NCBI GenBank assembly: GCA_963735595.1
Contig: CAVTLK010000002.1
Coordinates: 64,001-128,000, forward strand
Length of the DNA: 64,000 nt
From: an uncultured delta proteobacterium
Lineage (GTDB): Bacteria > Desulfobacterota > Zymogenia > Zymogenales > Zymogenaceae
Reading direction: 5' to 3'
Part shown: piece by piece, positions 7,053-22,185 of the stretch
Position numbering within the stretch: position 1 is the stretch's first letter
Layout of the letters: the number at the start of each line of letters is the position of its first letter
Made by a program: the position numbers and the translations under genes
The notes under the pieces: model-generated
Database searches by the model: none
Told to the model about the DNA's origin: nothing
The model's input: the letters and a program-made list of their open reading frames with translations, nothing else

Positions 7053-8609
7053 GTGATGGAAAAAGAATTCGTTATGGCGGTGGACAGCGGCACGCAGAGC
7101 GTACGGGCCATCGTATACGATCGGCAGGGCAAAGAACTTGCCGTGGCCCGGGCGCCGCACGATCCCTACTTTTCCCTTAAACCGGGATGGGCGGAGCAAA
7201 AACCGGACGACTACTGGAAGAAATTCTGCAAGGTCGTCGGGGAAGTGATGGCAAGCAAGAAGTTCGATCCAAAGAAGCTTGCCGCGCTCGGGATTACCGC
7301 CCAGCGGTCGGCGGTCATCCCGACGGATAAAAACGGAAACGCCCTGAGGAACAGCATCATCTGGCTCGACCAGCGGTACACGGAAAACCCGCCGCCCGCG
7401 AGCCTGGGTGTCAAGGTGCTGTTCGGGCTGGCCGGCAGGTCCAAACTCATAAATTTTGTCCAGAAGAATTCCCGCTTTACCTGGATCAAGACCCACGAAC
7501 CGGAGATCTATAAGAATACGTACAAGTTCTGCCAGGTCACGAGCTACTTCGTCAAGAAGCTGACCGGCGAGTTCGCCGATTCCTGCTCGCTCTACGTCGG
7601 TTATTACCCGCTGGAGCACAAGAAGTCCGACTGGTTCAAGATCAAGGGAGTCATGGATCTCTTCAGCGTAAGCGAGGATATGCTCCCGGTCATCAAGCAG
7701 CCTCACGAGGTTCTCGGGGTCGTCACCAAGAGCGCCGCAAAGGAGACCGGGCTGCCGGAAGGCCTGCCGATTATCGTCGGCGGCGGCGACAAGCAGTCCG
7801 AATCCCTCGGGGCGGGCGTCCTCACGCCGGATATCGGCGTCATCTCGTTCGGGACGGCCACCGCAATGGAGATCGTGACAAAGAAATACGTGGAGGACCG
7901 TCAGGGGCAATTCTTTACCTGGTGCTCGGCGGTGCCGTACGGATGGAACATCGAGTGTTTTGTTTACCGGGGGTTCTGGATGGTGCGGTGGTTCGCCGAC
8001 GAGATGGGCAGCCGGGAGAACATCATCGCCCGGGAGCGAGGCGTTGCCCCGGAGGTAGTCTTCGATGAGATAATCCGGGACATCCCGCCGGGGTGCCTGG
8101 GCCTGGTACTTCAGCCCTACTGGACGCCGCTGCCGTCACTCAAGTACTCCAAAGGGTCCATCATCGGTTTCGGCAGCGCCCATACCCGGGCGCATATCTA
8201 CCGGGCGATCCTCGAGGGCATGGGCTACGAGCTCAGGCGTCTGGGGGAGCTGGCCCAGAAGAAGACGGGAGTGCCTCTCAAGGAGCTCAGGGTCGGCGGC
8301 GGCGGGTCCCGGAGCGAGGAGGCGGTCCAGATTGCCGCGGATATCTTCAACCTGACCGCAAGGCGGATGGATACCTTCGAGAACTGCGCCAAGGGCGCCG
8401 CGATCGATGCCGCCGTGGGCACCGGGCTCCATAAGAACTTTGAGGAGGCGGTCGCCGCGATGACCAGGACGGGCAAGGCGTTTTACCCCAACCCCAAGAA
8501 CCGCGAGATATACGACGGCCTCTACAAGGAAGTATATTTAAAAACCTATGACGCGCTTTCCCCGCTCTATAAGAAGATGATCGAAATTACGGGGTACGAG
8601 AGCACGTAG
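7053..8609 (+). CDS. FGGY-family carbohydrate kinase
   Basis: DSGTQSVRA, GWAEQ, IWLDQR, GGGDKQ, RAILEG and GGGGSRS motifs. Confidence 0.92.
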   Translation: MMEKEFVMAVDSGTQSVRAIVYDRQGKELAVARAPHDPYFSLKPGWAEQKPDDYWKKFCKVVGEVMASKKFDPKKLAALGITAQRSAVIPTDKNGNALRNSIIWLDQRYTENPPPASLGVKVLFGLAGRSKLINFVQKNSRFTWIKTHEPEIYKNTYKFCQVTSYFVKKLTGEFADSCSLYVGYYPLEHKKSDWFKIKGVMDLFSVSEDMLPVIKQPHEVLGVVTKSAAKETGLPEGLPIIVGGGDKQSESLGAGVLTPDIGVISFGTATAMEIVTKKYVEDRQGQFFTWCSAVPYGWNIECFVYRGFWMVRWFADEMGSRENIIARERGVAPEVVFDEIIRDIPPGCLGLVLQPYWTPLPSLKYSKGSIIGFGSAHTRAHIYRAILEGMGYELRRLGELAQKKTGVPLKELRVGGGGSRSEEAVQIAADIFNLTARRMDTFENCAKGAAIDAAVGTGLHKNFEEAVAAMTRTGKAFYPNPKNREIYDGLYKEVYLKTYDALSPLYKKMIEITGYEST

Positions 8610-8701
8610 GCGCGGCGGCGTGGAAAAAACGCCCGCACAGAAGTCTGCGCATACCCTCCGGCGGGGGGTCATTGTCGAGCCGCCGAAGTATAGGAAGAGA
8701 G

Positions 8702-9871
8702 ATGGGTAATTTTTCCGTGGTCAAGAGCATCGCCGAGATCAACGAAAAGATCAAGTCCGGCAAAGTCGTCGTTGTTACCGCCGAGGAAATGACGGCCCTC
8801 GTGAAGAAGGAAGGCGAGGTGGCCGCCGCCCGCAGGGTGGACGTGGTTACCACCGGTACCTTTGGGCCGATGTGTTCCTCGGGGGCCTTTCTCAACTTCG
8901 GGCACACGAAGCCCCGGATCAGGGCATCAAAGATCCTCATGAACCGCGTACCGGCCTACGGCGGAATAGCGGCGGTGGACCTCTACATCGGCGTCACCGA
9001 GCCGACCATCGACGATCCGCTCAACAAGGTTTTCCCCGGCCAGTTCCCCTACGGAGGGGGGCACGTGATCCAGGACCTCGTCTCGGGCAAGAAGGTCGAT
9101 CTCGATCTCGAGTCATATGGCACCGACTGCTACCCGAACAGGGGCCTGAAAAAGGGAATGCGCCTGAAGGACTTTCCCTACGCGATGCTCACCAACCCCC
9201 GTAACGCATACCAGAACTACAACGTGGCGGTCAACACCGGCGACCGGACCCTCTATACCTATATGGGTATCCTCGGGCCGAAATTTTCCAACGCCAACTA
9301 CTGCAGCGCGGGCGAGCTTTCCCCCCTCATGAACGACCCGCTGTTCAAGACGATCGGACTGGGAACGCGGATATTCCTGGGCGGGGGGGTCGGCTATGTC
9401 GTCTGGCACGGTACGCAGCACAACCCGAAGCCCAGCCGGGGCTTCAAGGGGGTGCCCACGGTGCCGGCGGGCACGCTCTCCGTCACGGGGGACCTCAAGG
9501 GGATGAACGGGAGGAATCTCGTCGGCGTCAGCTTCATCGGATACGGGTGCTCGATGGCGGTGGGTTTGGGGATACCGATCCCGATCCTCAACGAGGAGAT
9601 GGCCTACCATACCTCGATTGCGGACGACGAAATCCAGGCGCCGGTCGTGGATTACGCGGTCGATTATCCCCAGATGACCGGCCGGGTCCTCGGCTACACT
9701 ACGTACGGGGCGTTAAAGACCGGCGCGATCACGTTTGAGGGAAAAGAGATCCAGACCGTGCCGCTGTCTTCCCGCGTCCGCGCGCAGGAGATCGCGGCCG
9801 CCCTTAAGGGGTGGATCGAGAAAGGGTCATTTGCGCTGACGGAAGCGCAGGTGTTGCTGCCGTCGAAATAG
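8702..9871 (+). CDS. Homocysteine biosynthesis protein (DUF39, L-aspartate-semialdehyde sulfurtransferase, MA1821-like)
   Basis: VDVVTTGTFGPMCSSGA, GTDCYP, NPRNAYQNY and GELSPLMNDP motifs. Confidence 0.85.
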   Translation: MGNFSVVKSIAEINEKIKSGKVVVVTAEEMTALVKKEGEVAAARRVDVVTTGTFGPMCSSGAFLNFGHTKPRIRASKILMNRVPAYGGIAAVDLYIGVTEPTIDDPLNKVFPGQFPYGGGHVIQDLVSGKKVDLDLESYGTDCYPNRGLKKGMRLKDFPYAMLTNPRNAYQNYNVAVNTGDRTLYTYMGILGPKFSNANYCSAGELSPLMNDPLFKTIGLGTRIFLGGGVGYVVWHGTQHNPKPSRGFKGVPTVPAGTLSVTGDLKGMNGRNLVGVSFIGYGCSMAVGLGIPIPILNEEMAYHTSIADDEIQAPVVDYAVDYPQMTGRVLGYTTYGALKTGAITFEGKEIQTVPLSSRVRAQEIAAALKGWIEKGSFALTEAQVLLPSK

Positions 9872-9893
9872 GAGAGCACCTAAGTTATATGCA

Positions 9894-9977
9894 GAATTAA
9901 CGGGACGCCATACGTAATCCATTATCCCCCCCAATTGAGCTACGAAAGGGGAATTACGTATGGTGTCCCCTTAATTC
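9894..9977. repeat. REP-like inverted repeat element (GGGGACA/TGTCCCC family)
   Basis: 25-bp arms at 9894-9918 and 9953-9977 with 2 mismatches; related copies at 39175-39257 and 59318-59402. Confidence 0.8.
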
Positions 9978-9989
9978 GCCCCTACAAAT

Positions 9990-10937
9990 TCACGCCATCC
10001 GGATCGTCCCGTCTACCCTCCTGATCCTCCCCTCTCCCAACAGCTTCTGTACGTGGCTTTCGGTGATGCCGGTGCCGGGGAAAAACCTGATCATCTCGTT
10101 GGCAAACATCCGCCCGACCAGGTCGACAAACGAAATCGGCCCTTCGGAGAGGACGCCGAGCATCTTTTTCTCCCGCGAAAGGAGCCGCGCCCTTACCTCG
10201 TCGATCTTCGCGGCCGGATCATTGATAACGGCGCCGTGGGAGGGCAGGATGACGCGCGGGTTGCATGCTTCGATCTTCGCGAGGCTTTCGAGATAGCCCG
10301 TAACGCCGCCCGATGCCGGCGTGTACCACGCCACGATGTCCCCCACGAGGTCGCCGCCAAACAATATCCCGGTATCACGGTCAAAGAGCGAGACGTGTCC
10401 GGGGGAATGCCCGGGTGTGTGCAGCACCTCGAAACGGTATACCCCGAGGCGGACGATATCTCCTTCTTCCAGCGACCCGTCCGGGTCGGCCCGCGACATC
10501 GATCATCCTGACCCGTCGAAAAACGAGAAGAGGTCTTTCACCGGCCCCTCCGCGCGGCCTAAAAGCCGCGTGGCAAGCTCGATGTCAAAGGTCCCGGTAA
10601 GGCCGCCGGGATCGCGGGCGTGGTCAACGTCGTCTGTATGGATGAGGACCTCCGGCGAGCACTGCCCGAGGAGCATTTCCGCGGCACCCATGTGGTCGGG
10701 GTGGGCGTGGGAAAGAACAAGCGTCTTCAGGGACGAGAGATCAAGCCCCAGTTGCGCGAGCCCCGCCTTCAGCCGGTCGAGCGCGTCTGCCCTCCCGCAC
10801 CCCACGTCGATCAGCGAAAAGGAACCGTTGTCCACGACGGCGTAGACGCAGGCCGTAGCAGGCCACATTGGTGACGGGGGCGAGATTTGGAACAGGTCGT
10901 CGGCGACTTTTTCTACGATCAGGTCTTCAGATTTCAT
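9990..10937 (-). CDS. MBL-fold metallo-hydrolase (315 aa) with an in-frame UGA at codon 145; candidate selenoprotein
   Basis: Track ORFs 10503-10937 and 9990-10499 are in the same frame (GGA TGA TCG ATG). HAHPDH lies before the UGA; HTPGHSPGH, GGD and PSH lie after it. A SECIS-like hairpin follows the UGA. Confidence 0.8.
10452..10505 (-). promoter_or_regulatory. Candidate bacterial SECIS element
   Basis: After the UGA: upper stem CGACCC/GGGUCG closing a GGAC loop that starts 21 nt after the UGA; possible lower stem CGAUGUC/GAUAUCG. Confidence 0.6.
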
Positions 10938-10995
10938 GATACCTTCTTAAAGGTGGACGGACACCGTGCCTGGCCGGTATTGTAAATTACCTATG

Positions 10996-11349
10996 CTAAT
11001 TACCCGGCAACAGCCGCCACGCGAGAAACGCAGCGGCGAGGAGCAGTACCGCCCCCAGCCACGGGACGATCACCGTGAAGACACCGGTCCTGAGACACAG
11101 CGCCATGATCGGAAGTGCTAAGACGGCATACATAGCCAGCCAGAGCGGGAGGCTTGCACCGACGGAGTCCCGCGCGAACGAGACTGCCAACAGAAGCGCA
11201 AACCCGGAGGTTAGTGCGGCGAAGAAAGCGCGCGGCAGCGAGGTTGCCCGGATACGTCCCAGCCGTGCCCCGAAGTAGATCACGGCGGTTTCGGCCGCGA
11301 TCCACAGGAGGAAGACGGTAAGACCGATAAAGAATGCCCTTTCCTGCAT
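10996..11349 (-). CDS. Small four-TM membrane protein of unknown function
   Basis: Four hydrophobic segments; co-oriented with its neighbours. Confidence 0.65.
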   Translation of the reverse strand: MQERAFFIGLTVFLLWIAAETAVIYFGARLGRIRATSLPRAFFAALTSGFALLLAVSFARDSVGASLPLWLAMYAVLALPIMALCLRTGVFTVIVPWLGAVLLLAAAFLAWRLLPGN

Positions 11350-11396
11350 GGTAGTAGTCCTGGGGGTCGAATAGGAAAGACAGTGTCCCGTAATTC

Positions 11397-12188
11397 CTAA
11401 TCCCGAACGTATATCTGTGCCGGGTGGGTGACCGTGATCGATGGGCCGTTTCTCTCGTTGATCGTACCGGTTACCTCGATCTCCCTGCCCCGGTAGGCCA
11501 CGGTGGGGTCGGCGCCCGCGGTCCCGAAATAAACCTGGAGGTACTGCGTCGGTACGAAGGCGGTAAAATCGGTTTTGAAGTCTGTACCGAAGTTTAGAAA
11601 CAAGCCCGGCGCGGCGATCTTTGCCGAGAGCACCCGCCCCGCGACGGTCTTGGACTCTCCGACGAATCGGGCCGCGTCATCGTCCCGGACCATCCAGCGG
11701 CCGGTGTCGGCCCAGAGGCCCTTTCCCTCGCTCCGGGCCGTCTCCATCGCGGCCGAAAGCTCCTTCTGGTGATTCAGGTTCGGCGGATAGGGGACGGCCA
11801 GCGCGGAGCCGGCAAGCACCATCTCACGGTTTATCATGGTATCGCCGTCATACACGTAGGCAAGCGTCCTGCCATAGCGGTCTTCTGTCTCGACATCGAA
11901 CTCGAGCCTGACCTCGTTCCCCTCAACGAGCCGCTCGTTGAGCTCCGCCGCCGCACTCCCCCCGTATTCGGCGGGGCGGTTGCCGCCGGTCTCGGGCGCG
12001 TCGATGCCGATGTAGCGGACCTCGCGGCCGTCGGAAAGCAGGAGGCTGTCACCGTCAAAGACCTTTGACACGACAACGCCCTCCTCCGGGGTACGTAGAA
12101 AAGAAATGACCCCGGCCGCGGAGGCGGCAAGGGCCAGAAGGACGATCAGGATAATGACAGGCGGGGCCTTTCTGCTTAGGCGTCTCAT
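11397..12188 (-). CDS. Membrane-anchored thermonuclease (SNase) family protein with a C-terminal OB-fold-like domain
   Basis: VFDGDS, VRYIGIDAPE, DRYGRTLAYVY and GKGLW motifs; N-terminal TM segment. Confidence 0.9.
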   Translation of the reverse strand: MRRLSRKAPPVIILIVLLALAASAAGVISFLRTPEEGVVVSKVFDGDSLLLSDGREVRYIGIDAPETGGNRPAEYGGSAAAELNERLVEGNEVRLEFDVETEDRYGRTLAYVYDGDTMINREMVLAGSALAVPYPPNLNHQKELSAAMETARSEGKGLWADTGRWMVRDDDAARFVGESKTVAGRVLSAKIAAPGLFLNFGTDFKTDFTAFVPTQYLQVYFGTAGADPTVAYRGREIEVTGTINERNGPSITVTHPAQIYVRD

Positions 12189-12192
12189 TGTA

Positions 12193-14175
12193 TCAGCGGT
12201 TGGTCCCCGGCACCTCGATGATCATGAGGTTCTTCTTGCTTTCGGTCGGCAACTCGGCGGCGATCGCCACGCCTTCCTCGGGCTGTTCGGTAATGCTCAT
12301 CAGCGCATCGGTCCTGGCCTCCACGACGGTCAGGATGAACGGCTCCTTGGTGGACTCGCCCGTCCGGTCGATGGTGGTGCTGCCGGTGACGCCCTCCCAG
12401 TCCCTCACCGACAGGAGCGAGAGACGCATGTCGTTGCGGTTCCTGATGCCCTGGGTCTTGACCAGGTACTGGATGATCTTGATGGTATCGTACCCGTAGG
12501 CCTCCAGAACGCCCGGTTCCCGGCCGAATGCGGTCTTGAAATCGTCGACAAACCGCTTGACCTCAGGGCGGTCGCTGTTGGGGCAGAAGGCGTCGGGGAA
12601 ATAGGCGCCGACCAGCGCGTCGCCGCCGATCGAAAGGAGGCCGGGGTCATTCCAGCCGTCGGTGCCGATCAGCGTGACGTTCTTGAGGTTATAGTAGGAG
12701 ACATACGGGACGATCATCCCGACCATGCTATAGTAATCGGGGATAAACAGTGCGTCAAACGCCGGTTTGCTCCGGTCTCCTCCGGCCGCGCCTATCAGAT
12801 CTCTCATCGTCGCTCGGAAATCGGCGGTCTCGCCCGCGTAGGTTGTCTCGGCGACAACCCTGGCGCCGTAGTAGCCCACTTCCCGGGAAAACAACTCCTT
12901 CATCTCCCGGCCGTAGGCGTCGTCGGGATAGAGGACCGCAAAGCGGGTGAGCCCGCGCCCCTGCACGACGTAACGCACCAGGCCGCGGATCTCGTCGGGG
13001 TTGGTGAGGAAGTTCCTGAAGACATAATCGCCGATGCCGGTGATATCCTGGGTCCTGGTAAGCGTGATGATGGGGATCTGCCGCTCCTGGGCCTCTTTTG
13101 CGGCGGCGATAGCGCTTTCTTTTGCCATCGGCCCGACGATGACCATGACGTCGTTATCCCGGGCAAGGTCGGTCACGGCGTAGGTGGCCGAGCCGGCATT
13201 GTCGCCACAGTCCTTGATAACCAGCTTTACCCGCGGGCCGTCGGTAAAGCCCATATCGCCGGCGGCAAGTTTCATCCCGTCGCGCGCCATGATCCCGAAC
13301 GATGAGTTGCGTCCGGACAGAGGCAGGATTACCCCGACGGTGATTGCCCCGGTCACCCCGGTGCCTGCCGTCTCCTTGAGCATCCCCTGGGCCTTGTAGT
13401 AATATTCGTGATCCGGCTGGTTTCGGACGATCTTCAAGAGCTGCTCGTGGGCCGCCCCGATCTCGCCACGGTCTATATATAACTGCGCCAGGGCAAACGC
13501 GGCGTAGCTGCCGGCGTCTTTGCCGACCAGGCCGTCCGATATCCAGGCCAGCTCATCCTCGGAAAGGTATTTCTCGACGATGTATTTGACATTGGTCTTT
13601 GCATCGGATTTTACCGCCGCGTCCGAAGTGCTGTCTCCAGCCTTCGTGAACCAAGAGATCGAGGAGTAGTAGTCCCCGATCATGAGATAGCTTTTTGCCA
13701 GCAGCATGTAGGTCGTGGTCTTGTCGGTACCGGCCGAGGGTTTTGCGGCCAGCGGTTTGAGGATCTCGGCTGCGTCGGTATATTTTCCCGATTTGAAATA
13801 CGTATAGCCGAGCTTGTAGCGGGCCTCATCGTAGCTGTCGGAGTTTACGTAATCACCGACGGCCTTGAGATAAAGGTTGCTCGCGGAGTTGAGGTCTCCC
13901 GAGGCCAGGTAGATATCCCCGGCGCGGACGAGGGCGTTATCGGTCAGGGAGTTACGCTCATAGGTATTGATGTATGCAAGGTACTCCTTGAGCGCCTGGG
14001 CGTACGAGCCGCTCTTGAAGTCCTGTTCAGCCTTTAAAAAGGCCTGCGACATCTCCGCGGACGGCGCCGCCGATGTCGATATATCCCGGGGGCCGGTCAT
14101 GGTAACGCAGGAGGCCGCAAAGATCAGGACGGATGCGATGCACGCCGCCACCCATAGTCTTTTTATTGTGTTCAT
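12193..14175 (-). CDS. Lipoprotein with TPR repeats and a type I periplasmic-binding domain (LpoA-like PBP activator family)
   Basis: Lipobox FAASC; BamD-like TPRs; VGVILPLSG, IVGP, FDALFIPD and EAYGYD motifs. Confidence 0.8.
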   Translation of the reverse strand: MNTIKRLWVAACIASVLIFAASCVTMTGPRDISTSAAPSAEMSQAFLKAEQDFKSGSYAQALKEYLAYINTYERNSLTDNALVRAGDIYLASGDLNSASNLYLKAVGDYVNSDSYDEARYKLGYTYFKSGKYTDAAEILKPLAAKPSAGTDKTTTYMLLAKSYLMIGDYYSSISWFTKAGDSTSDAAVKSDAKTNVKYIVEKYLSEDELAWISDGLVGKDAGSYAAFALAQLYIDRGEIGAAHEQLLKIVRNQPDHEYYYKAQGMLKETAGTGVTGAITVGVILPLSGRNSSFGIMARDGMKLAAGDMGFTDGPRVKLVIKDCGDNAGSATYAVTDLARDNDVMVIVGPMAKESAIAAAKEAQERQIPIITLTRTQDITGIGDYVFRNFLTNPDEIRGLVRYVVQGRGLTRFAVLYPDDAYGREMKELFSREVGYYGARVVAETTYAGETADFRATMRDLIGAAGGDRSKPAFDALFIPDYYSMVGMIVPYVSYYNLKNVTLIGTDGWNDPGLLSIGGDALVGAYFPDAFCPNSDRPEVKRFVDDFKTAFGREPGVLEAYGYDTIKIIQYLVKTQGIRNRNDMRLSLLSVRDWEGVTGSTTIDRTGESTKEPFILTVVEARTDALMSITEQPEEGVAIAAELPTESKKNLMIIEVPGTNR

Positions 14176-21321: not shown

Positions 21322-22185
21322 ATGAGTGACATCAGGCGCGTGTTTCTTGTATTTTTTGTCGCCTCGATAGTCGGGTGCCTGACTTTATTTGTTCCTGCCA
21401 TGCTATCGGCCCAGGACACGACCGACACTACGGATACGACGGATACGACGGATACAACCGATACCTCGGACGAGTCCGCCGATGAGGAGACGAAGGACGT
21501 CAACTGGAACGAGGCCCAGACCATGAAGGCCGAAAACGTCGCCGAGGCCGCGGCCGATATACTCGCCGAGAAGGCTGAGGACGCCGCTGCCGAGGCCGAG
21601 GCCGCTGAGGCTGATCTTGCGGCGGCGGAGTCCGACCTGACGGCGGCCGAGGATGGTCTCGCGGCGGCCGAGCAGAACCTCTCAGACGTTCAGGCAAACG
21701 CCGAGGCCACCGACGAAGAAATCACCGCGGCTGAAGCGGCAGTAGCGGACGCCACCGCGGCAGTTGATGCGGCTACCGCCGCAGTCGATGCAGCCACCGC
21801 CTCGGCCGACGAGGCCACCGCCAATGCCGACGAGGCCGCCGCCGCGGCCGAGAGCTTCGATGCAGAGTCTGTCATGGCGATGCGCGAGGACGGCATGGGC
21901 TGGGGAGAGATCTGCCATGAGCTTGGCATTCACCCGAGCGTCCTGGGCCTTGCCCTCGGCAAAAAGAAAGCGGCAGGTTTCATCGAGACGGTCAGGAACA
22001 CCTTCAGGGAGAATAAAGGGAAGGGCAAGAAGGGCGGAGACGACGGAGAGACCGATGTCGCCAGCTCTGGCAGCGGGAAGTCCAATAACGGGAAGTCCGA
22101 TAACGGAAAGTCCAAGTCCGATTCCAAGGGCAAATCCGGCGACAGTAACGGTAAAAGCGACGGTAAGGGTAAGGGAAAGCATTAG
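21322..22185 (+). CDS. Secreted low-complexity protein: (DTT)n tract, acidic Ala-rich coiled coil, GMGWGEI motif and K/G/S-rich tail
   Basis: AAGGAG RBS, signal peptide, own promoter and terminator. Confidence 0.8.
   Translation: MSDIRRVFLVFFVASIVGCLTLFVPAMLSAQDTTDTTDTTDTTDTTDTSDESADEETKDVNWNEAQTMKAENVAEAAADILAEKAEDAAAEAEAAEADLAAAESDLTAAEDGLAAAEQNLSDVQANAEATDEEITAAEAAVADATAAVDAATAAVDAATASADEATANADEAAAAAESFDAESVMAMREDGMGWGEICHELGIHPSVLGLALGKKKAAGFIETVRNTFRENKGKGKKGGDDGETDVASSGSGKSNNGKSDNGKSKSDSKGKSGDSNGKSDGKGKGKH

Follow-up and report, generated by a model that had tools for sequence, protein, structure and literature searches.

Two adjacent minus-strand open reading frames (ORFs) in a 64,000-nucleotide stretch of DNA from an uncultured delta proteobacterium of the family Zymogenaceae (contig CAVTLK010000002.1, positions 64,001 to 128,000; hereafter the window, whose own coordinates are used below) raise the question of whether they are the remains of a broken metallo-beta-lactamase (MBL)-fold hydrolase gene, two separately translated fragments, or a single gene in which an in-frame UGA is read as selenocysteine (Sec). 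An earlier note had proposed the last of these, and had pointed to a hairpin resembling a bacterial selenocysteine insertion sequence (SECIS) just downstream of the UGA. In this paper, we have followed up the proposal computationally. Judging from sequence comparisons, the locus very probably encodes a 315-residue selenoprotein with Sec at UGA145, and we consider it with high confidence to be a narrowly distributed, uncatalogued selenoprotein candidate. The genome carrying the window is referred to as G000; G001, G002 and G003 belong to the same genus, and G004 to G008 to the same family.

One reading frame with an internal TGA

Re-reading of the minus strand from 10937 to 9990 gave one frame of 315 codons, in which the sole internal TGA lies at 10505-10503 (codon 145) in the context FFDGSG-TGA-SMSRADPDG; the list of ORFs under translation table 11 splits this frame into ORFs of 144 and 169 amino acids. 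The Pfam domain Lactamase_B (PF00753) covers residues 31-234, across the UGA (E = 8e-27; 94.9 bits against a cut-off of 22.7), and a single-chain model of the whole 315-residue protein, an MBL-fold metallo-hydrolase with a C-terminal winged helix (9990-10937, minus strand), has a predicted local distance difference test score (pLDDT) of 95.5. The protein is a di-metal MBL fold plus winged helix of the TTHA1429/LACTB2/PqsE-like kind, and a Foldseek comparison with TTHA1429 (PDB 2zo4) gave an E value of 2e-23.

The metal ligands are distributed over both sides of the UGA, as the earlier note had observed. The motif H77-x-H79-x-D81-H82 (HAHPDH, residues 77-82; 10692-10709, minus strand) precedes it, and H177 (10407-10409), D196 (10350-10352) and H234 (10236-10238), all on the minus strand, follow it. 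All seven canonical ligands are intact. Among the 120 full-length homologues listed of the 974 found (43-61% identity), on which all homologue counts below are based, H77, H79, H82, H177, D196 and H234 are present in 120/120 and D81 in 119/120. D196 is the predicted bridging ligand by analogy with D178 of PqsE (PMC8056388).

Position 145 in the homologues

Residue 145 is Cys and residue 147 is Met in every one of the 120 homologues, 26 of which contain C-x-M-C; the family motif C-x-M thus corresponds to G-U-x-M at the predicted Sec codon (10503-10505, minus strand). Among the best matches in 61 genomes, TGA occurs at codon 145 in G001, G002, G003 and G005 (72-93% protein identity), so that with G000 two genera of one family share it, and the same hairpin accompanies it in all five genomes. 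The same-family genomes G004, G006, G007 and G008 carry TGT or TGC at this codon. When 401 genomes of the phylum were searched (E up to 1e-60), 21 matches were found, comprising 4 TGA and 17 Cys forms. The check proposed in the earlier note, whether homologues have conserved Cys or UGA with a hairpin at this position, spoke in favour of Sec.

When shorter proteins were searched for, 76 sequences were obtained: 22 terminate precisely at G144, while 24, plus a further truncated sequence, begin precisely at M147 (the counts of 22 N-halves and 24 C-halves each include the window's own). No full-length protein was found within the 69-92% identity range of these halves; the databases carry the whole UGA clade as two fragments.

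The UGA might instead be translated as another residue, i.e. Trp or Gly through a changed code, or Cys through suppression. The open frame agrees with such a reading and nothing beyond it does, whereas the terminal stop of the gene is itself TGA, the homologues have Cys and never Trp at position 145, and the genome possesses a UCA-type tRNA-Sec as well as genes of known selenoprotein families with TGA as their Sec codon. We regard this alternative as highly improbable.

The downstream hairpin and its conservation

The hairpin described in the earlier note, CGACCC-GGAC-GGGUCG, was found at 10488-10473 (minus strand). It has a stem of 6 bp (CGACCC/GGGUCG) and a 4-nt loop (GG(A/G)C, 10482-10479) that starts at the 21st base after the UGA, leaving 20 nt in between, and a folding energy of -9.5 kcal/mol. 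Judged against the parameters of the bacterial SECIS model (PMC13188914, section 5), i.e. a loop of 3-9 nt, a stem of 4-16 bp, a G in the first two loop positions, a spacing of 16-37 nt and a minimum free energy (MFE) of at most -7.5, it agrees with every one of them, and we predict it to be a bacterial SECIS. The Cys relatives lack such a hairpin.

The stem is identical in 5/5 UGA genomes. Within the hairpin codons 150-155, all four fourfold-degenerate sites are invariant, compared with 20 of 100 elsewhere. Furthermore, when positions at which the 26 closest Cys proteins differ were considered, 5/7 within residues 148-155 proved to be fixed in the split clade, versus 3/53 outside. The sole common change in this segment is D153G, seen in 6 of the 24 C-halves; in G005 it turns GGAC into GGGC, which alters a loop base and keeps the leading GG. 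On the selenoprotein reading, eight residues downstream of the UGA would have become fixed so that the coding sequence could accommodate a SECIS. The lower stem CGAUGUC/GAUAUCG, which the earlier note had added to the hairpin, appears in the MFE folds of 3/5 UGA genomes; it is absent from the consensus fold, and was rejected as a conserved part of the element.

Selenocysteine machinery and other predicted selenoproteins of the genome

The four genes that the earlier note had proposed looking for are all present in G000, namely selA, selB, selC (a UCA-type tRNA-Sec; 75.9 bits) and selD, the last with a TGA of its own. Across the same-family genomes, selA was matched in 10/10, selB in 9 and selC in 8, and selA was full-length in the search of 8/9 relatives. 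Since sel genes were also found in the Cys genera, these can make Sec yet do not use it here. A second selD-like match, which has no TGA and is in two pieces, lies at C3:24665-25476 (minus strand), roughly 18 kb away from the selD that has the Sec codon.

Scanning of 13 TGA candidates from the same genome revealed 6 members of known selenoprotein families, 1 macroglobulin and 6 sequences without a match. The known-family genes are UXX-star 1 and a YruB-like glutaredoxin, both glutaredoxin-like, two UshA-like genes, FdhA and SelD, with sites at C1:603717, C1:781467, C1:960094, C5:549192, C1:658593 and C3:6076; one of the UshA-like genes is fused to a multiheme cytochrome c region, as recognized by its CxxCH motifs. 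In 5/6 of them a G-led loop lies 18-23 nt after the UGA, which is the geometry of the hydrolase hairpin and of the consensus in PMC13188914 (section 5).

The macroglobulin, an alpha-2-macroglobulin at C4:339137 (plus strand), has TGA at its thioester Cys (GYPYG-U-NEQ). Its TGA is followed 20 nt downstream by a hairpin, ATGGCAAG-GTT-CTTGCCAT, and the same arrangement occurs in 7/9 family genomes covering the site; the two Cys genomes have lost the hairpin via silent and near-silent changes. In seven genomes, a distance of some 8-10 kb separates the macroglobulin gene from selA. No macroglobulin selenoprotein appears in the table of 119 families in PMC13188914.

Selection on both sides of the stop, and the alternatives of a pseudogene and a split gene

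Among the four intact UGA genes, pairwise dN/dS was 0.14-0.29 before the stop and 0.12-0.17 after it, i.e. below 0.3 on both sides, at synonymous distances of 0.55-1.7. Purifying selection on both sides largely refutes a pseudogene. What favours an inherited nonsense codon or a sequencing error is that the assembly has at least one frameshift, in selA (see below), and that the G003 copy of the hydrolase gene contains four single-base insertions. On the other hand, the same TGA is found in 5 genomes of 2 genera, and the 46 split predictions come from several public sources. In addition, contigs from 3/4 public runs cover the site, one of them with 44 differences in 249 bases, and no difference among those listed falls in the TGA or the stem. 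No RNA data set was listed among the runs that contain this sequence. We assign next to no probability to this explanation.

A split gene deserves closer attention: translation would stop at UGA145 and restart at AUG147, and the two fragments would together form an MBL fold that lacks residues 145-146. The earlier note had named separate translation of the halves as an outcome that would refute the selenoprotein, and a possible re-initiation site was indeed found, since a Shine-Dalgarno (SD)-like sequence that overlaps the UGA precedes AUG147 (10497-10509 with the AUG, minus strand). This sequence, GGGGUGAUC, pairs with the anti-SD of the genome at -8.4 to -11.1 kcal/mol in 4/5 UGA genomes, the median for genuine starts being -5.8 (n = 694), and its spacing is normal. 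Both halves are under selection, and in the model the break falls in a loop, residue 145 being placed by DSSP after helix 136-143.

Nevertheless, these observations are outweighed by others. A split would remove the residue that is Cys in 120/120 homologues. The SD-like sequence is a by-product of encoding G-[UGA]-S-M, as GGR and AUG are already present in the four Cys kin, where pairing reaches -3.3 to -6.4 kcal/mol, and the site in G000 itself pairs at merely -6.2; M147 is likewise invariant in the Cys homologues. Folding of the 35 nt that follow AUG147 gives -13.9 (-10.6 to -21.8 across the five genomes), and a value of -13.5 is reached by 0.4% of the 694 genuine starts; conservation of such a hairpin is what one would expect of a SECIS, whereas at a start site it would get in the way of initiation. 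Finally, 22/22 N-halves end at the same residue, and the in-frame stop is TGA in 5/5 genomes. A split gene is thus very improbable, although re-initiation at AUG147 may take place when selenium is short.

Strength of the selenocysteine reading

Several observations weigh against a selenoprotein and have to be set beside the evidence above. The region of the hairpin folds no better than its shuffles (z-scores of -0.66 to +0.47), and folding energy was rejected as evidence on account of these values near zero. Moreover, 223 of 1119 coding-like TGA read-through sites in G000 are accompanied by a G-loop hairpin with a folding energy of -5 kcal/mol or better, and the 6/6 stem pairs never vary in the five sequences, so that there is no covariation. 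The hairpin alone is not beyond chance; its weight comes from its conservation. The UGA forms have a single origin and hence are not independent witnesses, a change from TGY to TGA is what a nonsense mutation would give too, and the tree described below is a quick search that includes the residues encoded by the hairpin.

As for the machinery, selB was not found in G001, a genome that is 89% complete, and selA of G000 has one extra base at C4:330135 relative to G002 and G003, which shifts the frame and splits the gene over two frames. This insertion is probably an assembly error, because the hydrolase gene of G003 has four such insertions. The statement in the earlier note that this part of the window is free of indel errors stands for the hydrolase gene in the G000 assembly and does not extend to selA.

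Origin and distribution of the UGA form

In the quick tree, which comprises 101 rows and covers the sequence downstream of M147, the 27 UGA or split rows form one branch (SH-aLRT 95) inside the Cys clade. The gene order AcrB - hydrolase - alpha/beta hydrolase in G005 is the same as in the Cys genomes G004 and G006. The nesting and the shared locus order imply that Cys became UGA once, in place. Together with the Sec and fold readings, it is very likely, as far as sequence comparison can tell, that the cysteine that defines the family was replaced by Sec a single time, in an ancestor common to two genera of the same family. Among the close Cys homologues, one bears the label Candidatus Zymogenaceae bacterium.

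A DNA pattern combining the UGA and the hairpin matched at least 3 of 300 phylum genomes, all of the same genus, with 0 in the control, and G005 was not among the matches listed. Scans with generic MBL patterns covered the site at no fewer than 18 loci, with 17 Cys, 1 Ala and no TGA, a result that sets no limit on how widely the UGA form is distributed. A second UGA lineage suggested by the P0042 cluster was rejected, as its 148-aa members are frameshifts and not stops at 145. P0171 (170 aa, on a 29.6-kb contig), also a C-half, begins at the Met that corresponds to M147 but falls among the Cys proteins of the tree, and represents either a frameshift or a second origin of UGA.

The locus offers a Cys-to-Sec switch with before and after side by side, in which Sec-capable sister genera keep Cys at the same locus. 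The matched natural Cys/Sec pair, about 55-60% identical, makes the question of why Sec is used over Cys testable.

Fold relatives and novelty

The fold relatives TTHA1429 (2zo4), the Burkholderia proteins 5u8o/5i0p/6ao1, the Bacillus paraoxonase 8zxg and human LACTB2 (4ad9) are 19-24% identical to the hydrolase, and none is a selenoprotein by its title. A Cys of 8zxg sits in the profile column of residue 147/145, which may be chance at 21% identity, and 2zo4 lacks it. Assignment to subclass B3 beta-lactamases, glyoxalase II (GloB), acyl-homoserine lactone (AHL) lactonases, SoxH-related proteins or Strvi_7410 was rejected, the scores being below the NCBIfam cut-offs among the matches listed (best 75.6 of 525 bits; B3 52.6 of 240; GloB 37.3 of 200.8), as they are for four Cys homologues. 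The ESM Atlas returned only unnamed MBL clusters, and a literature search on the function of the family found nothing.

Bacterial selenoprotein families with a coding-region SECIS number 119 in Table 1 of PMC13188914 and 111 in BSepDB (PMC13326102). The table contains no MBL-fold entry, in line with the earlier note, which knew of no characterized selenoprotein of this type. Term searches found no lactamase or hydrolase in the text and supplements of deep-Sep or in the text and the covered part of the supplement of BSepDB. In the literature covered, which included Haft and Tolstoy 2025 by way of the PMC13188914 table, no bacterial MBL-fold selenoprotein was found; the unvalidated novel candidates of Deng et al. 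2026 could include the family.

Like known bacterial selenoproteins, the hydrolase has UGA at a conserved Cys, a G-led small-loop hairpin within 16-37 nt downstream and selABCD in its genome; unlike them, it has G-U-x-M, which is not a redox motif, and a narrow, recent origin. The UshA-like (seleno)proteins NF041198/NF049981, two copies of which are encoded in G000, also place Sec on a metal-dependent hydrolase fold, but theirs is a different, 5'-nucleotidase-like fold with a CxU motif near the N-terminus. The trypanosome selenoprotein SelTryp (PMC1557815) also has a predicted MBL-fold region; it is, however, a eukaryotic multidomain protein with rhodanese domains and a eukaryotic SECIS, whose Sec belongs to a CxxU tail at the C-terminus and not to the MBL domain, whereas that of the hydrolase would lie inside this domain. 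With this candidate, a metal-dependent hydrolase, the bacterial selenoproteome would gain a further protein fold as well as a motif that is not of the redox type.

Possible roles of residue 145

Sec replaces catalytic cysteines. Accordingly, the uncharacterized cysteine of a widespread hydrolase family of anaerobes is likely to be functional. By the standard bacterial mechanism, SelB with Sec-tRNA would bind the hairpin 20 nt past UGA145, and Sec would be inserted. Given Sec, we tentatively propose an acyl chemistry in which the substrate would be a hydrophobic acyl-thioester or ester, probably an acyl-CoA, whose carbonyl is bound and polarised by the two metals. The Cys/Sec of the lid loop would serve as nucleophile and carry the acyl group, and the lower pKa of Sec would be the reason for its use. 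The closeness of residue 145 to the metals, the substrate class and the covalent step are all presumed in this proposal.

PqsE, a 2-aminobenzoylacetyl-CoA thioesterase (PDB 5hio, 2q0i), has a fold with a capped hydrophobic pocket, which the hydrolase shares. Two family motifs probably line the pocket: W204-Y-x-P207 after the bridging Asp (10317-10328, minus strand; W204 and P207 invariant, Y205 in at least 90%), and F285-F-P-G288 of the winged-helix cap (10074-10085, minus strand; P287 and G288 invariant, F285 and F286 in at least 90%). However, PqsE is 21% identical, its pqs context is absent at the hydrolase, and it has no catalytic cysteine as far as the accessible sources describe it; the neighbourhood gives a weak hint of a PqsE-like thioesterase activity. 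The UGA at an acyl-chemistry cysteine of the macroglobulin lends mild support to the acyl reading.

There are also points that speak against this chemistry. The neighbourhood count comprises 54 chosen neighbours, near kin included, with no base-rate control, and no acyl-CoA neighbour occurs at the UGA-clade loci among those scanned. Five outer-family representatives lack both conserved cysteines. MBL-fold enzymes normally use a metal-bound hydroxide and dispense with a covalent step.

A broader proposal, which we hold to be somewhat unlikely as a whole, would be an MBL family with a Cys/Sec nucleophile beside the di-metal centre and a covalent acyl-selenoester, in which selenium is used for acyl and not for redox chemistry, in a lineage with Sec predicted at the thioester Cys of its alpha-2-macroglobulin as well, and in which the ribosome-binding site that the UGA creates for AUG147 may let selenium supply switch between the full selenoenzyme and two fragments.

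The second conserved cysteine, C47 (DVGCG; 10797-10799, minus strand), a possible redox partner, suggests another role given Sec, i.e. a U145-C47 selenenylsulfide for redox control or persulfide transfer beside the metal site. C47 is Cys in 109/120 homologues and in 22/22 N-halves of the UGA clade, and the C-x-M-C proteins would fit as well. Redox enzymes make up the majority of known selenoproteins (PMC13188914, section 7), and the convergent neighbour of the hydrolase is a homocysteine-biosynthesis sulfur-insertion gene. Against this, C145 occurs without C47 in 9/120 homologues and in 5/27 family representatives, C47 without C145 in none (2 are gapped), and the pairing with the sulfur-insertion gene has a counterpart only in G003. 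Moreover, as the earlier note had stated, Sec is not part of a thioredoxin-type CxxU or UxxC motif, the context being GSG-U-SMS in 5/5 UGA genomes. This role appears rather unlikely.

Alternatively, U145 might be an extra metal ligand, or a base or gate that tunes ordinary hydroxide-based hydrolysis. The seven intact ligands leave hydroxide chemistry available, Sec coordinates a metal in FdhA and in NiFeSe hydrogenases (PMC13188914), and M147, which is invariant, could act as another soft donor. The same canonical ligand set, however, would leave little need for a further protein ligand, and we judge this role, too, to be rather unlikely.

Neighbouring genes and other features of the window

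The sulfur-insertion gene (PF01837, E = 6e-147) lies at 8672-9871 on the plus strand. Directly upstream of the hydrolase and on the same strand, a 117-aa hydrophobic ORF (10996-11349, minus strand) has no Pfam match and is possibly co-transcribed. A promoter scan detected no promoter-like site, and terminator-like sites numbered 3 versus 1.7 expected; Rfam over window positions 8000-13000 gave a single chance match, outside the gene. Further along, at 21322-22185 (plus strand), the window encodes a protein of 287 aa that looks secreted and contains DTT repeats, a coiled stretch rich in Ala/Glu and a tail rich in Gly/Lys/Ser.
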